Of a DNA stretch of 13,913 nt, positions 1 through 9,289 are shown one piece after another. Positions within the stretch are counted from its first letter, which is position 1; each line of letters starts with the position of its first letter. The translations under genes were made by a program, and so were the position numbers. This DNA is from Candidatus Heimdallarchaeota archaeon (GTDB taxonomy: Archaea > Asgardarchaeota > Heimdallarchaeia > Heimdallarchaeales > Heimdallarchaeaceae), in the NCBI GenBank assembly GCA_030668875.1, contig DAOVER010000068.1, positions 1 to 13,913 of the forward strand, read 5' to 3'. The notes beneath the pieces are model-generated. The model saw only the letters and a list, made by a program, of their open reading frames with translations. It ran no database searches and was not told where the DNA came from.

Positions 1-363
1 TTTAGATCCACACAATACAACTTCTGCACCATATCCTTTGGTAGCATCAATTTTGATTTTAGGTGCATTTTCTGGCATGACCACTACAGCTTTTACTTTA
101 GCTAAAGATGATGCTAAAGAGAGTGCTTGAGCAAAGTTTCCTGAAGAGTGTGTTGTAACTCCTTTAGCTTTTAGTTCAGGAGACATGTTAGTTAATGCAT
201 TGAGGGCTCCTCGAATTTTGAAAGAACCGGTTTTTTGGAAATTTTCAAGTTTGAAATAGCAATTACAGTTCAGCATTTCATTAATAGTTGAAGATTTCAT
301 GACTGGAGTTTGATTGATTCTATCTTTAATTCTATTATATGCTTCTTCTACCTTGTTTAACAT
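1..363 (-). CDS. PLP-dependent threonine/serine dehydratase (serine racemase-like), N-terminal part; runs off the window edge
   Basis: Not in the ORF track; manually translated from ATG at 363: MLNKVEEAYNRIKDRINQTPVMKS...FKLENFQKTGSFKIRGA...THSSGNFAQAL...VVMPENAP...KGYGAEVV. It has the PLP-lysine motif (K-x-E-x-x-Q-x-TGSFK-x-RGA) and the SSGN motif of fold-type II dehydratases. Confidence 0.93.
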   Translation of the reverse strand, partial: MLNKVEEAYNRIKDRINQTPVMKSSTINEMLNCNCYFKLENFQKTGSFKIRGALNALTNMSPELKAKGVTTHSSGNFAQALSLASSLAKVKAVVVMPENAPKIKIDATKGYGAEVVLCGSK

Positions 364-415: not shown

Positions 416-1801
416 TTAATGTGTACTTTTTCCTGTGAACTTAAATGAATTCAATTTCAATGTTGGACATCTAGTTGTTAAGCTTGTATCGAGAGTATCT
501 CCAATAAGAGGTACATTACTGAGGATGTCTGGTATTTTATCAGTAAATCTGAAGTTCCTTGCCGCAGAGACTACTTCACCATCTTCGATATAAAACAAAC
601 CATCTCTGGTAAGACCTGTAATTGCTCCTAATCTCCTATTTACGAAATTTGTATAATGTAATCGATTTATGAAAAAACCTTGCTTTGTCTCTTCATACAT
701 CTCAACAAGTGAAGAATCTCCTGTGTAAAGAGTAAGATTATTGGGCATTACCCACCCAAAAATATAGTCGGAAAAAGGTATAACCTGATGTCCTGTGTTT
801 TGATCCTTATCATTAAGGTATCTGGCTGAAGTGAAGCTGTTATAGATAATTGATTTAGGTACGCCCTCTTCTACAATATATAGTGGTTTCTTTGCTACTC
901 CTTCTCCATCAAATGGGGATGCTAGGATTGTTTCAGTATTTAGGGGATCATCTTGAAGAGTAATATTCTTATCGAATAATTGTGACCCTATTTGATCTGC
1001 TATAAAACTTTGAGATTCATGATACCCAGTTCCATTAAAACCAATAGCTAGAAACCGAACAAGTGTACTAACAGCTGCTGGAGATAAAATAACTTCATAA
1101 TCACCGGGTTCATAATCCTTAGCGGAACATGTACTAACAGAGAGTTCTGTAGCTTTTCTTGCCATTTCTTCTGGTTTTAATTCTGAAGGATTTCTTACTA
1201 CTTGTTTTTCTTTACCAAATCCCTTGTTCTCTTTTTCTGTTAACGAATTTACAGTCATTCCGTTGTATGTAAGCTGATGCGATAAATCAATACCATTTGA
1301 ATTAAGTATGCGAAACCGAAGATCTGTCATATATACTGAGCCTGCTAAATTAGCATCCTTATCTACCTCTTCAGCTGCATTTACAGCTGTTTCAACCATA
1401 TCTGCTCTCTGAAACTCATCCAATAGGTTTCCTGTGGCTATAACATTTGGCATCTGATCTTCTTTCACTTCTGGAAATCCTTGAAAGAAGGGAATTTCTG
1501 GAACAAATTCAAGCATATTAGTTAACTGATCTATTGTGTCATCAATTGATTTTTTTGTCAAAGCGGTTAAAGAATTAGATACAATACGTTTACCCTTTGA
1601 AGCGCGAAACATAAATTTGCAAGTATGATCTGATACATTCTGATGTATTGTTGAAGTAGCAAAACGTGTTAGGGAATGAAGCCTATCAATACAACTCATC
1701 TCATAAGAATCAAATGAACTAGCTTCAAGAGCTTTTGTTGCATAATTCATCAAGGTTTGAAAGCTTTCCGAAAACATGTAATCACTCATTTTTTTAGGCA
1801 T
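416..1801 (-). CDS. TldD/PmbA family protein, PmbA/TldE-type (non-catalytic subunit-like)
   Basis: Family motifs GDYEVILSPAAV, DDP..SPFDGEGV, TGH, PNNL, and TRDGLFYIEDGEVV..RNFRF. No HExxxH at the position where TldD has it. The track start is TTG at 1804; the in-frame ATG at 1801 is used here, and the exact start is uncertain. Confidence 0.88.
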   Translation of the reverse strand: MPKKMSDYMFSESFQTLMNYATKALEASSFDSYEMSCIDRLHSLTRFATSTIHQNVSDHTCKFMFRASKGKRIVSNSLTALTKKSIDDTIDQLTNMLEFVPEIPFFQGFPEVKEDQMPNVIATGNLLDEFQRADMVETAVNAAEEVDKDANLAGSVYMTDLRFRILNSNGIDLSHQLTYNGMTVNSLTEKENKGFGKEKQVVRNPSELKPEEMARKATELSVSTCSAKDYEPGDYEVILSPAAVSTLVRFLAIGFNGTGYHESQSFIADQIGSQLFDKNITLQDDPLNTETILASPFDGEGVAKKPLYIVEEGVPKSIIYNSFTSARYLNDKDQNTGHQVIPFSDYIFGWVMPNNLTLYTGDSSLVEMYEETKQGFFINRLHYTNFVNRRLGAITGLTRDGLFYIEDGEVVSAARNFRFTDKIPDILSNVPLIGDTLDTSLTTRCPTLKLNSFKFTGKSTH

Positions 1802-1929
1802 CAAGAACTCTAGCCTTAGATAATCTTAACGAGAAAACTTTGAATTTAAACGTTTCTCTGAACATTTGCATCTACCTGTAATTCCATTTAGCAAAAATTC
1901 AAATAGATATTCAGTATGATACTCTTTAT

Positions 1930-2664: not shown

Positions 2665-3309
2665 ATGTCTGATGCTTCATATCCAGGGTTGTTTATTTGT
2701 TTCGAAGGTATTGATGGTTCAGGAAAAACAACTCAAGCACAATTAGTAGTTGAACGACTTTGCACTTTAGGATATGATGCAGTTTATACAACTGAGCCAA
2801 CAAAATGGTCTGAACCAGGCAAAAAACTTCGAGAAAGCTTTTTTGCTCCAATTCGATTACCCGTTGATGATGAATTTAGACTCTTTTTGGAAGACAGAAT
2901 ACTTCATTTGAAGAGTGAAGTAATTCCCTTACTTAATGCTGGAAAAATTGTTGTAACTGACAGATATTACTTCTCTTCGGTTGCTTATCAAGGGGCAAGA
3001 GGACTTGATTGGCAGTATATCTTAGAGGAGAATGAGAAAATAGCAATTGTACCTCACTTAGCAATATTTTTGGATTTACCGGTTAGTGTAGCTATTGATA
3101 GGATTGCCTCTGAAAGAACTGAAGGAGTAAATACTTTTGAGAAAGAGGAAAGTCTCAGAAAAGTTAAGGATATCTATTTACTCCTTGCAGATAAGTTCCC
3201 CAAGCTAATAACAAAACTTGATGCTTCTAAAGAAATTTCTGAAATCCAACAAAATGTTCTTAGGTTAATTATACAGTTATGGCAAAATAGTAGTAAAGTA
3301 GATAACTAA
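2665..3309 (+). CDS. tmk: Thymidylate kinase (dTMP kinase)
   Basis: P-loop FEGIDGSGKTTQ, TTEPT, and DRYYFSSVAYQG motifs. ATG at 2665 is preceded by SD-like AGGTGA; the track start is GTG 2659. Confidence 0.96.
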   Translation: MSDASYPGLFICFEGIDGSGKTTQAQLVVERLCTLGYDAVYTTEPTKWSEPGKKLRESFFAPIRLPVDDEFRLFLEDRILHLKSEVIPLLNAGKIVVTDRYYFSSVAYQGARGLDWQYILEENEKIAIVPHLAIFLDLPVSVAIDRIASERTEGVNTFEKEESLRKVKDIYLLLADKFPKLITKLDASKEISEIQQNVLRLIIQLWQNSSKVDN

Positions 3310-5499
3310 GCCCAATATCGCAAGAATTTTTATTATTAATGCAATATCTAGTATCTTTACGCGAACATCAACAATGTGATTTTTTCGTCTTTTGGGTTCG
3401 AATCCTTTTAGAGACATGGATTCTGCTAAATCTATTCCCCTGTTTATTGCTCCTGACATTAAAGGTCGAAGAGTTTTTTTTATTATATAATATTGCCTCC
3501 TCAAATTCATTCTTCTTCCTATCAACCCTTTCAATTTTCTGACAGAATTTATGTCTGCTGCTTCTTTGCTTAATACAGGGACAAATTGATAAATTGAGAT
3601 AATTAACCATACGAGTTTTGCGGGAAGATACATCTTTTCTAAAGCCACTGCTAGTTCATAAGGACTAACGGAATTGAAGAACCAAGTTATCAATAACAGT
3701 GAAACTACAAATCTTACCTCTATTTGGATAAATGTTGTAAATGGTGCACTAGTGATTTTACTGTAGAATGCAATGATTGTAGCAATTATAGAAAAAACTG
3801 TAACGAAAAATATAGCTTGACCTAGGAATTTTAGTTTTATCTCACCAGTAATGTAGATTGAAAATGCAAAGAGAAGCAACGTGATTAAAACATAAACATT
3901 GTTGGCGTAAAGCGATGAAATAAGCATTGCTAACACAATTATTACTCTTGTTCTAGGATCTAAGTGCCATTTATCTCCAAATTTAGGCAATGTCTTTTGC
4001 TCGCATTTTATCATAATTTGATCCAATTTTTCTTTGTTTTCAATGGTACTTAATGCTAAATTATCAAAATCCTCTATCTCTTTTATACAACCACTTTCCA
4101 AAAGGAATAATCTATCACAAAATTCTTTCAACCAAGTTGAATCATGTGAGATGATCACCACGGTTTTGTTTTCTTTCCTTAAATCACATATTTTGTTAAC
4201 TAACCACTCTTTATTCTCGTTATCTAAACCATTTGTGATTTCATCTAAAATGATAATGTCTGGTTCATGATATATTGCTGCAATAAAAGCTAACCTTCTC
4301 TTTTCACCATGGGAGAGAGATTGTGGATTCTGATCCTTGTACCTCGCTAGACCACTTTCTTTGAGCAAGGTGTTAACGTCTGTCCCTTTAGATTCAACCT
4401 CTAAACTTTCCTTAACTAATTCAACCTCTTGGTAAACTTTGTCTTCAAAGAATTGAATTTCTGGGTTCTGAAAAACCATTGAAACATGCTTAGCTTTTTC
4501 TTCCCAAGACAAATCTTTGAAATTCTCCCCTTTAATCTCAATAGCCCCCCTATTAGGTTTTAATATACCACACAGGAGTTTTGCTACTGTTGTCTTTCCT
4601 GATCCGTTGTCACCTAGAATGCCAACAACCTCTCCTTCGTTGAATGAAAAAGAAATGTTGTTTATTCTGAAACCTTCTGGAAACTCGAATTCGAGGTTTT
4701 TTACAGATAATATGGTTTTTTGAGTTAAAGTTTGACCATCTGTTGATTTGCCTCTTAATTCTTCATTCTCTTGAATGCTTGCAATTTCTCTTAGATCTGT
4801 ACTATCTTCTTTTATTGTAATTTCCCTTACAATCTTACCCTCATTAATTTCAATTACTCTTGTAGCAACACCCAAATAATGTGAAATATCATGAGTCGAA
4901 ACAATTATGGTTTTTCCTTCTCTATTCATTTTAGCTAAGAGAGAACAAATTACTTTCTTGTTGTTAGTATCAAGATTTGCTAAAGGCTCATCAGCTATAA
5001 ATATTTCCGGATCAGAAGTCAAACCACAAGCAATCGCTACTTTTTGCTTCTGTCCTTCTGATAATTTTTGTGGGTTACTTGCAAGCAAATTGTTTAAGTG
5101 TAATTTAGACGAAATTGCTTGAACCTTTTCATTAATAACCTCACTTTTTATAGCTCTATATTCCAATGGAAATGCTAATTCAGTTAGAACGAAAGGTGTA
5201 ACCAGGGTATTTTCAACGCGTTGGGGAACATATCCAATTCTTTTAGATAGATATAAAATAGAAGATTCTTGGACCTTCTGTTTTCCAATAAATACATCTC
5301 CCTTTGTTTTTCCAGCATAAAAAAATGGTATGAGACCAACTAGTGAATAACATAGAGAACTCTTTCCTGATCCACTTGAACCTGTGAGGATTATGAATTC
5401 ACCCTGTGAAATTGAGAGATTAATGTCTGAGAGGGTCCATTTGTCGCGAAAATGATATTGAAAAGAAAAATTCTCGAAAGAGATTATTGGTTCTTTCAA
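3277..5499 (-). CDS. ECF transporter energizing module as one polypeptide: two ABC ATPase domains (EcfA/EcfA') fused to a C-terminal EcfT/CbiQ membrane domain
   Basis: ATPase 1: GSSGSGKS, LSEGQKQKVAIA, IFIADEP, STHD. ATPase 2: GDNGSGKT, LSHGEKRR, IIILDE, ISHD. EcfT: HLDPRTR, several TM helices, ELAVALEKMYLP, RGIDLAESMSLKGF. TTG start with GGTGA SD 6 nt upstream. Confidence 0.9.
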   Translation of the reverse strand: MKEPIISFENFSFQYHFRDKWTLSDINLSISQGEFIILTGSSGSGKSSLCYSLVGLIPFFYAGKTKGDVFIGKQKVQESSILYLSKRIGYVPQRVENTLVTPFVLTELAFPLEYRAIKSEVINEKVQAISSKLHLNNLLASNPQKLSEGQKQKVAIACGLTSDPEIFIADEPLANLDTNNKKVICSLLAKMNREGKTIIVSTHDISHYLGVATRVIEINEGKIVREITIKEDSTDLREIASIQENEELRGKSTDGQTLTQKTILSVKNLEFEFPEGFRINNISFSFNEGEVVGILGDNGSGKTTVAKLLCGILKPNRGAIEIKGENFKDLSWEEKAKHVSMVFQNPEIQFFEDKVYQEVELVKESLEVESKGTDVNTLLKESGLARYKDQNPQSLSHGEKRRLAFIAAIYHEPDIIILDEITNGLDNENKEWLVNKICDLRKENKTVVIISHDSTWLKEFCDRLFLLESGCIKEIEDFDNLALSTIENKEKLDQIMIKCEQKTLPKFGDKWHLDPRTRVIIVLAMLISSLYANNVYVLITLLLFAFSIYITGEIKLKFLGQAIFFVTVFSIIATIIAFYSKITSAPFTTFIQIEVRFVVSLLLITWFFNSVSPYELAVALEKMYLPAKLVWLIISIYQFVPVLSKEAADINSVRKLKGLIGRRMNLRRQYYIIKKTLRPLMSGAINRGIDLAESMSLKGFEPKRRKNHIVDVRVKILDIALIIKILAILGLVIYFTTILP

Positions 5500-5519
5500 T
5501 TTAGATCACCAAAGTTGAT

Positions 5520-6530
5520 TTATTTCTGTTTTATTTCCTTAAGCAACATTTTTAGAAGCATTTGTACAATCTCATCTTTCTTCTTTGGAAACTCCTTTGG
5601 CTTGTTAAAATTTATCCCCGCAGCAGTTTGATGACCACCACCAGATCCTTCAAAATTTGCAGAAATCACATTTGCTAGAGTCCCAAGAGAAATTTTGTTT
5701 CTTTCTGCAAAAGTTTTGGTACATCTCATGCTGATACGATATTCCTTATCAGAGGGCACTGCTAATACGACTGCGAAGCTTGCCCCTAATCCAATTAGCG
5801 CTCTTGCTACTGACGATTCATAAGAGCTCACATGAGTAAGTGCATAAATGTCAGTTCCTTCTTTATGAATTAATGTTCTTGTTACTCCTTTTAATCTGGC
5901 AATTTTCTCTGAATTGCTTGGCTCTTTTTGCAAAATAGAAAGAGCTTCATCATAATTGCCTCCACTACGTATTAAAAACTGAACAGTATTGAAAGTTGAA
6001 GCTGTTCTATAGATAAATCTTCGAGTATCAAAAAGAATACCCGCAAGCAAAAATGTAGCGATATTTGGTTCTAATACTATCTCCAATTTTTCATATATTT
6101 TTCCTATCATTTCAGCTGTTGATGTCTCTGTATCAATTATTGAGTGAGTTATCTCTTCTGCTTGTTTTATCCTTTCATGATGATCTATAACGATGATAGG
6201 TTTCTTTTGAGAAATGAAATTATTTAATGAAATATTGCCGAGTTGCTGAATATTATTAGCATCACAGATGAAAATGATGTCCAGATCATTAGGTACCGTA
6301 TCACTTTGAAACACTTCATTTCCGGTCAAAAGCAGTTTTTTTGATATTAAATTTATTGACTGTGCAAATAATGTAAATCTCACCTTTGGAAAATATTGCT
6401 TCAGTATATATTTTAATCCAACTGCGCTTGAAATAGCGTCAGGATCTGCATTTTGATGAGCAAAGATTCCCACATGAGAAATTTTTTTCTTTTGATAGAT
6501 TTCTATAATATCTAGGAATTTTTCCGACAG
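5520..6530 (-). CDS. DHH/DHHA1 family phosphoesterase (NrnA-like)
   Basis: Motifs HQNADPDA, IFICDA, VIDHH, GILFDT and GGGHQTAAG. The frame is open upstream of the track's GTG (6473). An in-frame CTG at 6530 has a GGAGGAG SD 5 nt upstream, so the start is probably about 6530. Confidence 0.9.
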   Translation of the reverse strand: MSEKFLDIIEIYQKKKISHVGIFAHQNADPDAISSAVGLKYILKQYFPKVRFTLFAQSINLISKKLLLTGNEVFQSDTVPNDLDIIFICDANNIQQLGNISLNNFISQKKPIIVIDHHERIKQAEEITHSIIDTETSTAEMIGKIYEKLEIVLEPNIATFLLAGILFDTRRFIYRTASTFNTVQFLIRSGGNYDEALSILQKEPSNSEKIARLKGVTRTLIHKEGTDIYALTHVSSYESSVARALIGLGASFAVVLAVPSDKEYRISMRCTKTFAERNKISLGTLANVISANFEGSGGGHQTAAGINFNKPKEFPKKKDEIVQMLLKMLLKEIKQK

Positions 6531-6817
6531 AGTAACTCCTCCTTTAATACATCTTGTGCATATTCATAAGCCTCTTGTTGAAGTTCATCTAATTGCAAAG
6601 AAGATAAGCCGCCTGATATATCACAGTCGAGGATTAGGGTGAGAACACTGTCGGGAGACTGTGATAAACTTATTATAATCCCAAAGTCAGTTAAGAGTTT
6701 CCAAGACTTATGGTTTTGAAGGAATAAGTGTATCTTTGTTTCAACAATTGAAGCTATCTCTTCAAGCTCATCATCAGATAAAGGTTTAAGCCCAATATCG
6801 GTTATATCTGAAACCAT
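6512..6817 (-). CDS. DUF3194 family protein (conserved archaeal, typically between pfdB and a DHH gene)
   Basis: Acidic 101-aa protein (IGLKPLSDDELEEIASIVE...LDELQQEAYEYAQDVLKEEL) resembling the family, in its characteristic gene context. Confidence 0.75.
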   Translation of the reverse strand: MVSDITDIGLKPLSDDELEEIASIVETKIHLFLQNHKSWKLLTDFGIIISLSQSPDSVLTLILDCDISGGLSSLQLDELQQEAYEYAQDVLKEELLCRKNS

Positions 6818-6858
6818 AAACTTTCAACTCTTTTTGTATTTGAAAAATTTTGCCGGGA

Positions 6859-7200
6859 TTATTGACTCCCAGAAAGCTTTACTTGTAATTCTTTGAAAGA
6901 AGTGACTAATTTGTTCTGTCTTTTAGTCAATGAAGCAATTCTTACTTCAACCTTTTCATGTTCTTCTTCTACATATTTATTCACATCTTCAAGGTTTGTT
7001 TGAAATAATAATCTGCCTGCAGAACGATAAATAACTGCGGAATTATCCAGATTTTTTGTTTCCTTTTTGGCTATTTCTAAATCTCTTTTTTCCATCTCTA
7101 ATTGTTGGACTTGCCTACCAATTACATCTAATTGCTGAGCTAGTTGTTGGTACTGTTGAAGATCTTCTTGTTGTTCTGGGGTCATTTGTGGTTGTGCCAT
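6859..7200 (-). CDS. pfdB: Prefoldin subunit beta
   Basis: Coiled coil / beta-hairpin / coiled coil: QQYQQLAQQL...LEMEKRDLE...VIYRSAGRLLF...EKVEVRIASLTKRQ. SD-like GAGG upstream. Confidence 0.93.
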   Translation of the reverse strand: MAQPQMTPEQQEDLQQYQQLAQQLDVIGRQVQQLEMEKRDLEIAKKETKNLDNSAVIYRSAGRLLFQTNLEDVNKYVEEEHEKVEVRIASLTKRQNKLVTSFKELQVKLSGSQ

Positions 7201-7245
7201 TTTAAATCCTCTAATAATCTCTAAACAATGCTGATGAAGAGGAAA

Positions 7246-7260
7246 AATAAAGGTTTTGAT
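7246..7260 (-). promoter_or_regulatory. Putative BRE+TATA promoter of pfdB
   Basis: Minus strand reads ATCAAAACCTTTATT: a purine-rich BRE followed by a TTTA box, about 48 nt upstream of the ATG. Confidence 0.5.
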
Positions 7261-7304
7261 AAACGGGAAAGGAGTGAACCTACATTCAGTAGAAGGTTTA
7301 AGAT

Positions 7305-7332
7305 AATAAAGAAAAAGAGGGAAAAAGAGAAA
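7305..7332 (-). terminator. Putative oligo-U terminator of the actin gene
   Basis: Minus strand after the actin stop reads TTTCTCTTTTTCCCTCTTTTTCTTTATT, with two T5 tracts in a tandem 9-mer. Confidence 0.55.
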
Positions 7333-7339
7333 TTATGTC

Positions 7340-8476
7340 TTAGATACAGCGGTAAACTGCGGTTGGTCCAATTTCTTTGTATTCTTTCTTGGTAACCCAC
7401 AGTTTTGCGAATGTCTTAAGAGAACTTAAGATACTTCCACCAATCCAAACAGAATATCTTCTTTCAGGGGGGGCAATAATTTTTACTTCCATTGTTTCAG
7501 GTACTAATTCAGTAAGCTCCTTGTGGAGACGTTCTTTTAGACCTGGGTACATAGTTGATCCGCCTGATAATACGATGTTGGCATATAAATCTCTGCGAAG
7601 ATCGACATCACAGTTTTGAATAGATCTGTAAATTAGCTCATCTAATGCGTTTTCTTCAGAACCAATAGCTCCAGGATTGAAGAACAATTCAGGGGCCATA
7701 AATCTCTCTGCACCAATGGTTAATGTTTCACCATCAGGTAGAGTGTATGTCTTTTCCATTCCAGAAACTTTCTCAGCTAGCTTCAATTCTTTTTCAGGAT
7801 CTAAAGCTACATAGCAGAGTCGTTCCTTGATGTCACGGACAATTTCTCGTTCAGCACTGCTTGAGAGTGAATATCCACGTTGTCGGAGTAATCTTCTCAA
7901 ATAATCAGTTACATCACGACCGCCGATATCAGAACGATGAATAGCATGAGCAATTGCGAACCCTTCATAGACAGGAACAATGTGTGTAACTCCATCACCA
8001 GAATCTACAACTATACCAGTTGTACGGCCTGATGCATATAGAGATAGAATAGCCTGCATTGAGATGTACATTGCAGGTACATTGAATGTGTCAAACATCA
8101 ATTCTGCCATTTTCTCTTTGTTTTGATTTTTATTCAAAGGAGGTTCAGTTAACAGAATAGGATGTTCATTGGGGTTAACTCTTAAGTCATTATAGAAAGT
8201 ATAATGCCAAATGCGTTCCATAGCATCCCAGTCTTGAACTTGTCCATGCTCAACAGGATAAACAAGTTTCAAAACACCTCGTAGGTTAATAGCTTCTTCG
8301 CCTATATAATATTCGCGAACGTAATGTTCTACATCGGTCATGATTATCTGATATTTAGGATAACCAATGATCGTTGGAAAAACGCTTCTAGGTTGATCTT
8401 CTCCAGCAAAACCGTTTTTGGTAAAGCCCGTACCATTATCGATAACAAGCGGTTTGTTTTGTATCATCTCTTCCAA
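7340..8476 (-). CDS. Asgard actin (Lokiactin-type, eukaryote-like actin)
   Basis: 378 aa, collinear with actin: [95 protein letters not shown] start with GGTGA SD (8484-8488); an alternative ATG lies at 8467. Confidence 0.98.
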
Positions 8477-8536
8477 TTTTAAGTCACCAGATTAATTTTG
8501 TTTTTGTTATATAGTTTCACTACTCGTGTTTTTTTT

Positions 8537-8551
8537 CTTAAATGTTTTGAT
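8537..8551 (-). promoter_or_regulatory. Putative BRE+TATA promoter of actin
   Basis: Minus strand reads ATCAAAACATTTAAG, about 63 nt upstream of the TTG. A second candidate, GAAACTATATAA, lies at about 8507-8518. Confidence 0.45.
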
Positions 8552-8616
8552 TGTATTAGGCTAAATCTAGAATAAATTATCAACATCCTTATATGCCTTT
8601 CACCTTTTTTCATCTT

Positions 8617-9138
8617 TTATTCCATTCCTTCTCCTGCAAATGCATTTATCCATCTTGTGAATATGTTATATTTTGACATTTTCTTTATTTCTTCTCTTCT
8701 TTTCGCATCCAATGTTTGCCCTGTCTTCATTGAGTTTATTTCTTCCCAGTTATTGCTTAATCCTTCTAGTAGTGCTTTTATATCTGAATTTAGCGCTATT
8801 TGTTCCATTGGGTTATCTGTCATTATTGCACTTGGTATTAGTATTCTTGTATCAAATATTCTTGCTATGTCTGCTTCTTCAAATGTGAATGTTGTTAGTT
8901 TTGAGAATGAAATTTCTACACTTGCCGTTGACTCTATTTGTGGTATTTTTATTGCATAGCTTATTATGCTCCTACTTGTGCTCCTCTTAATATATTCAAT
9001 CTTACTTAGTCTTTTTAGTTGTTCCACTAAATCTTCTGAAAAGCCACTATTCCTCCCTATTCCTGTACTCGTTTTTATCATATCTTCTACTATTTCTCCT
9101 ATTGTTAGTTTTGATTTATATATAAAATCAAATGCCAT
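8617..9138 (-). CDS. Hypothetical soluble protein directly upstream of actin
   Basis: 173-aa ORF with ATG, partial SD (AAGTGA) and normal globular composition. No motif I recognise. Confidence 0.75.
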   Translation of the reverse strand: MAFDFIYKSKLTIGEIVEDMIKTSTGIGRNSGFSEDLVEQLKRLSKIEYIKRSTSRSIISYAIKIPQIESTASVEISFSKLTTFTFEEADIARIFDTRILIPSAIMTDNPMEQIALNSDIKALLEGLSNNWEEINSMKTGQTLDAKRREEIKKMSKYNIFTRWINAFAGEGME

Positions 9139-9289
9139 TTTATCACTTCAATTTTTGTAGTACAAAATACTCTCATTTGACTAAATAAATTGTTTGTAAT
9201 TGAGATGGACACATATTGTCAGTTGTATTCCTATCTAACAGAGAAAATTCTTTCAGAAGACAAGACATCTACAATGATTTGGAGGAAGA

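Follow-up and report, generated by a model that had tools for sequence, protein, structure and literature searches.

An actin gene beside prefoldin beta in the Heimdallarchaeaceae: probably a lineage-specific rearrangement that joined separate transcription units

Introduction

Eukaryotic prefoldin captures nascent actin and delivers it to CCT. On the Heimdallarchaeaceae contig analyzed here, the gene for an Asgard actin is followed, on the same strand, by the gene for the prefoldin beta subunit (pfdB), and the question arises whether this neighborhood says anything about the age of the relationship between actin and its chaperone. Were the adjacency functional, it would provide the first indication from genomes that the folding route from actin through prefoldin to chaperonin has archaeal roots, a question that bears on how the eukaryotic cytoskeleton came to depend on chaperones; the survey reported below shows this synteny hint to be weak. 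Within the literature searched, no paper was found to link Lokiactin or Asgard actin with prefoldin; the adjacency is real and reproducible and, as far as could be found, unreported.

Gene Content of the Window

The window, that is, the whole stretch of DNA analyzed (13,913 nt), is the entire contig C78 of genome G000, a 3.2-Mb metagenome-assembled genome (MAG) in 99 contigs. Its host genus comprises AB_125-type Heimdallarchaeaceae, including "Heimdallarchaeota archaeon AB_125"; the same family holds two complete genomes, Ca. Heimdallarchaeum aukensis PM71 and Ca. H. endolithica PR6. The genera of the family are labeled g1 (the host genus), g2, g3, g4, and g5 (Ca. Heimdallarchaeum). The genes of the window were assigned from an open reading frame (ORF) listing and Pfam profile matches:

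1-363, minus strand: PLP enzyme fragment (ORF listing and Pfam)
416-1804, minus strand: PmbA/TldD (ORF listing and Pfam)
3277-5499, minus strand: fused ECF-type transporter gene (two PF00005 domains and PF02361, CbiQ/EcfT), 20 nt after the DHH gene
5520-6473, minus strand: DHH/DHHA1 phosphoesterase (PF01368 and PF02272), 38 nt after the DUF3194 gene
6512-6817, minus strand: DUF3194-like small protein (PF11419, 17.8 bits, below cut-off), 41 nt after pfdB
6859-7200, minus strand: prefoldin beta subunit pfdB, 113 aa (Prefoldin_2, PF01920, 70 bits, full length)
7201-7339, minus strand: actin-pfdB spacer of 139 nt, between the actin stop codon and the pfdB ATG
7241-7270, minus strand: BRE/TATA-like pfdB promoter motif tttcccgtttat-CAAAACCTTTATTT, starting 57 nt before the pfdB ATG
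7311-7339, minus strand: oligo-T/C tract directly after the actin stop codon, with two T5 runs; probable archaeal intrinsic termination signal
7340-8476, minus strand: actin gene of the Asgard "Lokiactin" type (PF00022, 451 bits, full length)
8617-9138, minus strand: 173-aa ORF without Pfam match, 140 nt upstream of actin and co-oriented with it

Pfam matches and coordinates bear out the arrangement given in a preliminary description of this DNA, with actin, a spacer of 139 nt, pfdB, DUF3194 and DHH all on the minus strand. The 173-aa ORF has an A-rich coding strand and its own BRE/TATA-like motif at 9195; it occurs in three very close relatives only, and the remaining genomes of the genus carry an LRR gene or another gene at its place.

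The Actin Gene and Its Paralogs

The actin protein matches profile positions 4-407 of the 410 positions of PF00022 (cut-off 27 bits), and the MreB profile at only 16 bits; its closest solved chain is "HC1 actin" (PDB 9wc4; 648 bits), and the eukaryotic actins of animals and yeast follow at ~538 bits. With a full-length profile match, and with Asgard and eukaryotic actins as its closest relatives, it belongs to the Asgard Lokiactin type and shares the full-length actin fold family of 9wc4; compared to these Asgard actins the protein itself is ordinary, and the only family-specific feature is its downstream neighbor. The gene more likely starts with the ATG at 8467 than with the TTG at 8476 that the ORF finder had chosen, because the matches of its orthologs begin at the ATG. 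Actin identities reach 98-99% within the genus and 90-96% against genera g2-g5.

Three actin-family genes were found in G000: the window copy, one on contig C16 and one on contig C29. The C16 copy (G000:C16:2176-3294) is 83% identical to the window actin, occurs only in some genomes of the host genus and has an unrelated gene neighborhood; the C29 copy (G000:C29:32203-33435) is divergent, with 198 bits to PF00022, and is possibly Arp-like. The pfdB-adjacent copy is thus the main actin ortholog of the family. Elsewhere in the same order, an actin match (G040:C275:2884-4002) contains one in-frame TAG, which could reflect a sequencing error, a pseudogene or recoding. Actins of the Heimdall type were also found on contigs labeled Thorarchaeota (JBHLQZ010000021; 98%), Bathyarchaeia (DATKZI010000013; 79%) and Deferrimicrobium (DATKTP010000170; 76%), the first of which shows the actin-pfdB synteny as well; these three contigs are probably mislabeled or mis-binned.

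Prefoldin Beta and Its Downstream Block

The pfdB product matches positions 1-100 of the 106 positions of PF01920 (cut-off 27.6 bits), which identifies it as a prefoldin beta subunit; it is the sole PF01920 gene of the genome, in single copy, and its closest solved relatives are archaeal beta chains only (2zqm, 2zdi, 1fxk). The genome further contains one alpha subunit gene, pfdA (PF02996, 79.6 bits), on contig C95 (43047-43388), unlinked to pfdB, and two thermosome (group II chaperonin) genes on contigs C17 and C91. One beta and one alpha gene imply a generalist archaeal prefoldin of alpha2beta4 composition, not the six-subunit complex of eukaryotes; from its family membership, the pfdB product would be expected to assemble into such a hexamer with holdase activity.

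Downstream of pfdB, the genes DUF3194, DHH and ECF form one block with pfdB in all genera of the family, with gaps of 41, 38 and 20 nt in the window. The DUF3194-like protein falls below the Pfam cut-off of 21.5 bits; six of nine orthologs match PF11419 at E ≤ 0.01, and the positional ortholog after pfdB in genome G070 reaches 31.1 bits. The ECF gene is the last of the conserved block; it comes after DHH in every genus of the family and likewise in family f7. In the window its product is one protein of 740 aa in which two ABC ATPase domains are fused to the membrane component CbiQ/EcfT; two ORFs take the place of this gene in g2 (G011), g3 (G013), g4 (G014) and g5 (G015), and three genes in f7 (G079/G080), so that the full fusion seems limited to G000 and the genomes closest to it, for example G030. 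A hairpin followed by T5 (6853-6872, minus strand) overlaps the pfdB stop codon and might act as an attenuator ahead of the DUF3194 gene. A scan of sigma-70 promoter and hairpin-terminator models, which are bacterial-type models applied to an archaeal host, gave no enrichment over shuffled sequences; it flagged this hairpin (6872-6853).

Distribution of the Adjacency

The positions of pfdB were compared in 399 Asgard genomes, and those of actin in 82 genomes of the class. Actin and pfdB are neighbors in the 21 g1 genomes (including G000), wherever both genes share a contig, and in g2; the spacer measures 131-289 nt in these two genera, extends to 760-834 nt in g3 and g4, and reaches 1530 nt in the g1 genome G030. 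In g3 and g4, actin and pfdB flank a NUDIX gene, which is on the opposite strand in g3 and split in g4. On the extracted loci, this NUDIX hydrolase occupies 485-1015 (minus) and 4947-5477 (plus), with opposite orientations in g3 and g4; in the g4 genome G014 it is divided into ORFs of 75 and 98 aa, which suggests a frameshift or decay. G030 (contig BPTK01000015) carries a 418-aa TnpB/IS605 gene exactly between actin and pfdB (locus 4545-5801, minus strand; OrfB_IS605 and Cas12f1-like TNB).

Outside of g1-g4 the pair is separated. In both complete Ca. Heimdallarchaeum genomes, actin (plus strand) and pfdB (minus strand) are convergent and ~21 kb apart, and in other families of the same order and class the two genes are found on different contigs. 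Among 80 named actin loci in which pfdB was sought within 4 kb, 22 have pfdB within this distance, all with actins at least 90% identical to that of the window; it is absent near actin in 46 informative loci, including those of Hodarchaeota, Borrarchaeum and Helarchaeota, and 12 loci end too early to tell. Conversely, none of 40 pfdB loci from ~20 further Asgard families has actin within 3.5 kb; the genomes behind these loci include single-contig genomes of 6.0 and 4.4 Mb, presumably of cultured Lokiarchaeia. Recurrence of the adjacency in distant lineages, or its independent origin, was not found in these surveys; it is confined to g1-g4 of one family.

Since the contig is short (13.9 kb) and belongs to a MAG of 99 contigs with 4.4% estimated contamination, it has to be weighed whether the gene order is an artefact of assembly or binning; the probability of this is negligible, as more than 22 MAGs assembled independently in several studies show the same order, on contigs of up to 701 kb (others measure 288 and 304 kb). 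An assembly chimera was rejected on the same grounds: the adjacency is seen on 22 named MAG contigs, and 21 genomes of the host genus have it.

The preliminary description had taken the adjacency as a hint that the actin-prefoldin client relationship predates eukaryotes; the survey across Asgard lineages shows it to be unique to one clade, an outcome that the same description had named as one part of what would count against its proposal. The pairing is confined to a part of the Heimdallarchaeaceae, its junction is interrupted by NUDIX or TnpB genes in some members, and it is missing in Ca. Heimdallarchaeum, Hodarchaeales, Lokiarchaeia and ~20 other Asgard families. Hodarchaeales are reportedly nearer to the eukaryotes. 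A shallow, family-restricted rearrangement that is absent from the nearest relatives of eukaryotes therefore has no bearing on whether the actin-prefoldin relationship predates eukaryotes. The same evidence weakens the proposal that the adjacency is functionally selected, such that pfdB, placed behind an abundant and aggregation-prone actin, has its expression coupled to that of actin by partial terminator read-through or by shared local regulation, with the client relationship already established in Heimdallarchaeia. The absence of the pairing from 46 and 40 informative loci elsewhere, Hodarchaeales included, the tolerance of TnpB and NUDIX genes between the two partners, and the persistence of Heimdallarchaeum with a convergent pair 21 kb apart all argue against selection, which we consider unlikely.

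The Ancestral Context of pfdB and Its Rearrangement

The archaeal exosome superoperon is said to run from proteasome or SBDS genes through Rrp4, Rrp41, Rrp42 and L37ae to Pcc1 and prefoldin beta. The preliminary description had stated that the pfdB block lies at the end of this exosome/KEOPS (pcc1) cluster in many archaea, and this holds for other Asgard archaea: in ~30 of 40 other Asgard loci, Rrp4-Rrp41-Rrp42-L37ae lies upstream of pfdB, often with Pcc1, and DHH lies downstream, with pfdB and DHH linked in 37 of the 40 sampled loci. By Pfam assignment, a genome of the same class has the order SBDS-Rrp4-Rrp41-Rrp42-L37ae-x-Pcc1-pfdB-DUF3194, and one of the same order has Rrp41-Rrp42-L37ae...pfdB-DHH. 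The window pfdB lacks this context and is preceded by actin instead. The absence of exosome and pcc1 genes from the locus is accounted for by another contig of G000, C64, where SBDS-Rrp4-Rrp41-Rrp42-L37ae-x-Pcc1 is followed by an M28 peptidase gene; on the long contigs of relatives, 59-87 kb separate L37ae from pfdB. The cut that severed the pfdB block thus lies behind Pcc1, where the exosome cluster of G000 ends. The proposal that a rearrangement joined actin and pfdB is sustained in this form: the block became detached from the exosome/Pcc1 cluster and now lies downstream of actin. The window retains pfdB, DUF3194 and DHH as the tail known from behind Pcc1 in most of the sampled Asgard genomes, with their tight spacing of 20-41 nt; in the Heimdallarchaeaceae this tail is severed and placed behind actin.

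In the most probable history, the block pfdB-DUF3194-DHH-ECF was severed behind Pcc1, its own promoter included, in the ancestor of all or most Heimdallarchaeaceae, and landed downstream of the main actin gene of the family; four genera then kept the pairing through the usual inertia of gene order, loosened by the insertion of NUDIX and TnpB genes.

The position of Ca. Heimdallarchaeum in this history can be read in two ways. Compared to g1 and g2, its genomes show an inversion of ~22 kb, extending from pfdB to a 312-aa gene, with one breakpoint exactly in the actin-pfdB spacer, and gene-order comparison with g1 and g2 indicates at least one further local change. In Ca. H. aukensis (G015:C1:1612868-1639630), the pfdB-DUF3194-DHH-ECF segment is inverted relative to g1 and g2, so that the 312-aa gene follows actin and a Dak2-domain gene precedes pfdB. 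The adjacency may accordingly have been ancestral to the whole family and lost in Ca. Heimdallarchaeum by inversion, still without functional meaning; this reading departs from the main explanation in polarity only. In a tree built from the four block proteins, g5 groups with g3 and g4, opposite g1 and g2, which would put the adjacency on both sides of the family root; in addition, a homolog of the gene that follows actin in Heimdallarchaeum occurs in a g1 genome at the far end of the would-be inverted segment. Yet the relevant nodes have only 56-67% bootstrap support, the four proteins are linked and fast-evolving, and the gene after actin in the outgroup G042 is unrelated to that of Heimdallarchaeum, as it is to that of the other state, and leaves the change unpolarized. 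On balance, ancestry to the whole family with later loss stands at even probability.

Transcription Signals in the Spacer

The preliminary description had cautioned that a terminator and a separate promoter appear to lie between actin and pfdB, and the comparison across genera upholds this caution for both elements. When the spacers of 22 g1 and g2 genomes were aligned, they were mostly unalignable, with two blocks kept: the T/C-rich tract after the actin stop codon, which is present in every g1 and g2 spacer despite divergence elsewhere, and a block tttcccttttat-CAAAAnnTTTATTT located ~57 nt before the pfdB ATG. This second block is better conserved across g1 and g2 than any other part of the spacer, and it is built like an archaeal BRE with a TATA box. 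Its position coincides with a genome-wide promoter peak, a five- to eight-fold enrichment of AAA-N2-3-TTTAWW at 30-60 nt ahead of ORF starts in G000. The motif CAAAAnCTTTATTT is found before pfdB also in Ca. H. aukensis, where the upstream neighbor is the Dak2-domain gene and not actin.

The oligo-T tract after actin is a probable intrinsic terminator. A shared operon would lack intergenic terminator and promoter signals, and the actin-pfdB spacer carries candidates for both; since the T tract is conserved and the BRE/TATA motif travels with pfdB, the two genes are most likely separate transcription units. Transcription of actin would end at the oligo-T terminator, and that of the pfdB block would start from its own BRE/TATA promoter ~57 nt before the ATG. 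Against a selected coupling of the two genes stand the conserved terminator-like tract and a promoter belonging to pfdB itself, which accompanies pfdB also where actin lies elsewhere. Archaeal oligo-T terminators are often leaky, and some read-through from a presumably strongly expressed actin gene into pfdB may occur. Seven metatranscriptome runs contained only 5-8% of the sequence words of window positions 5500-9200; Logan contigs of four of them yielded, from relatives, pieces that resemble the actin gene at 90-99% and one piece over pfdB (6918-7121), with none bridging 7201-7339, and do not resolve transcript boundaries.

Retention of the Pair and Background Synteny

The preservation of the junction in four genera could be taken as a sign of selection, the more so as the genes remain co-oriented and pfdB has itself diverged to ~50% identity. 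Within the genus, the region upstream of actin is variable, with the 173-aa ORF, LRR or other genes, and the actin-pfdB junction and its co-orientation are kept in every genome examined; this greater stability of the junction relative to the upstream flank could reflect weak selection, and is the only point in favor of selection from the comparison of gene order. The background has to be considered, however. In stretches of 20-40 kb around the locus taken from g2, g4, g5 and one distant g1 member, neighboring gene pairs still lie within 5 kb of each other in G000 in 15 of 28, 8 of 10, 12 of 23 and 11 of 17 cases, respectively, figures that are lowered by contig breaks. About half or more of neighboring pairs are thus kept between genera, and the retention of actin and pfdB needs no special explanation: it equals what background synteny predicts, and as a functional signal the adjacency does not go beyond chance. 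By a rough estimate, the chance of encountering one such eye-catching adjacency somewhere would be on the order of 10-20%, assuming a dozen or so "eukaryote-relevant" partners, ~3000 genes and tens of independent actin neighborhoods in the phylum.

Is Actin a Privileged Client of Heimdallarchaeal Prefoldin?

Established knowledge lends the idea of selection some appeal, given the hand-over of nascent actin from prefoldin to CCT in eukaryotes. Archaeal prefoldin is a general holdase and could well bind actin. G000 encodes homologs of each part of the eukaryotic prefoldin/GimC-actin-CCT system, namely actin, prefoldin alpha and beta, and two group II chaperonins; the system differs in that the eukaryotic prefoldin is a six-subunit complex against one alpha and one beta gene in G000, and in that the solved relatives closest to the window pfdB are exclusively archaeal beta subunits. 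A functionally selected cluster is further disfavored by the scattering of the other partners: pfdA and both thermosome genes show no linkage to actin in G000 or in any of 84 actin loci examined. A further version of the selective proposal holds that in AB_125-type Heimdallarchaeaceae the relocation of pfdB was kept by selection, with partial read-through of the actin terminator tying pfdB supply to actin synthesis and with actin already a privileged client; it would place actin among the clients of prefoldin in Heimdallarchaeia before the eukaryotic prefoldin-CCT pathway arose, and is even less probable than selection in general.

We consider it very probable that the adjacency is instead a real, lineage-specific product of rearrangement that joined separate transcription units and carries no detectable information on a client relationship. 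A relationship between actin and prefoldin in archaea remains reasonable because archaeal prefoldin is a generalist holdase; an Asgard prefoldin may thus handle an Asgard actin, which is a question for biochemistry and not for synteny, and any Asgard lineage would be equally suitable for it. The comparison is useful in itself in that it documents the ancestral Asgard context of pfdB, Rrp4-Rrp41-Rrp42-L37ae-Pcc1-pfdB-DUF3194-DHH, and places the break of this exosome-pfdB context in the Heimdallarchaeaceae after Pcc1.
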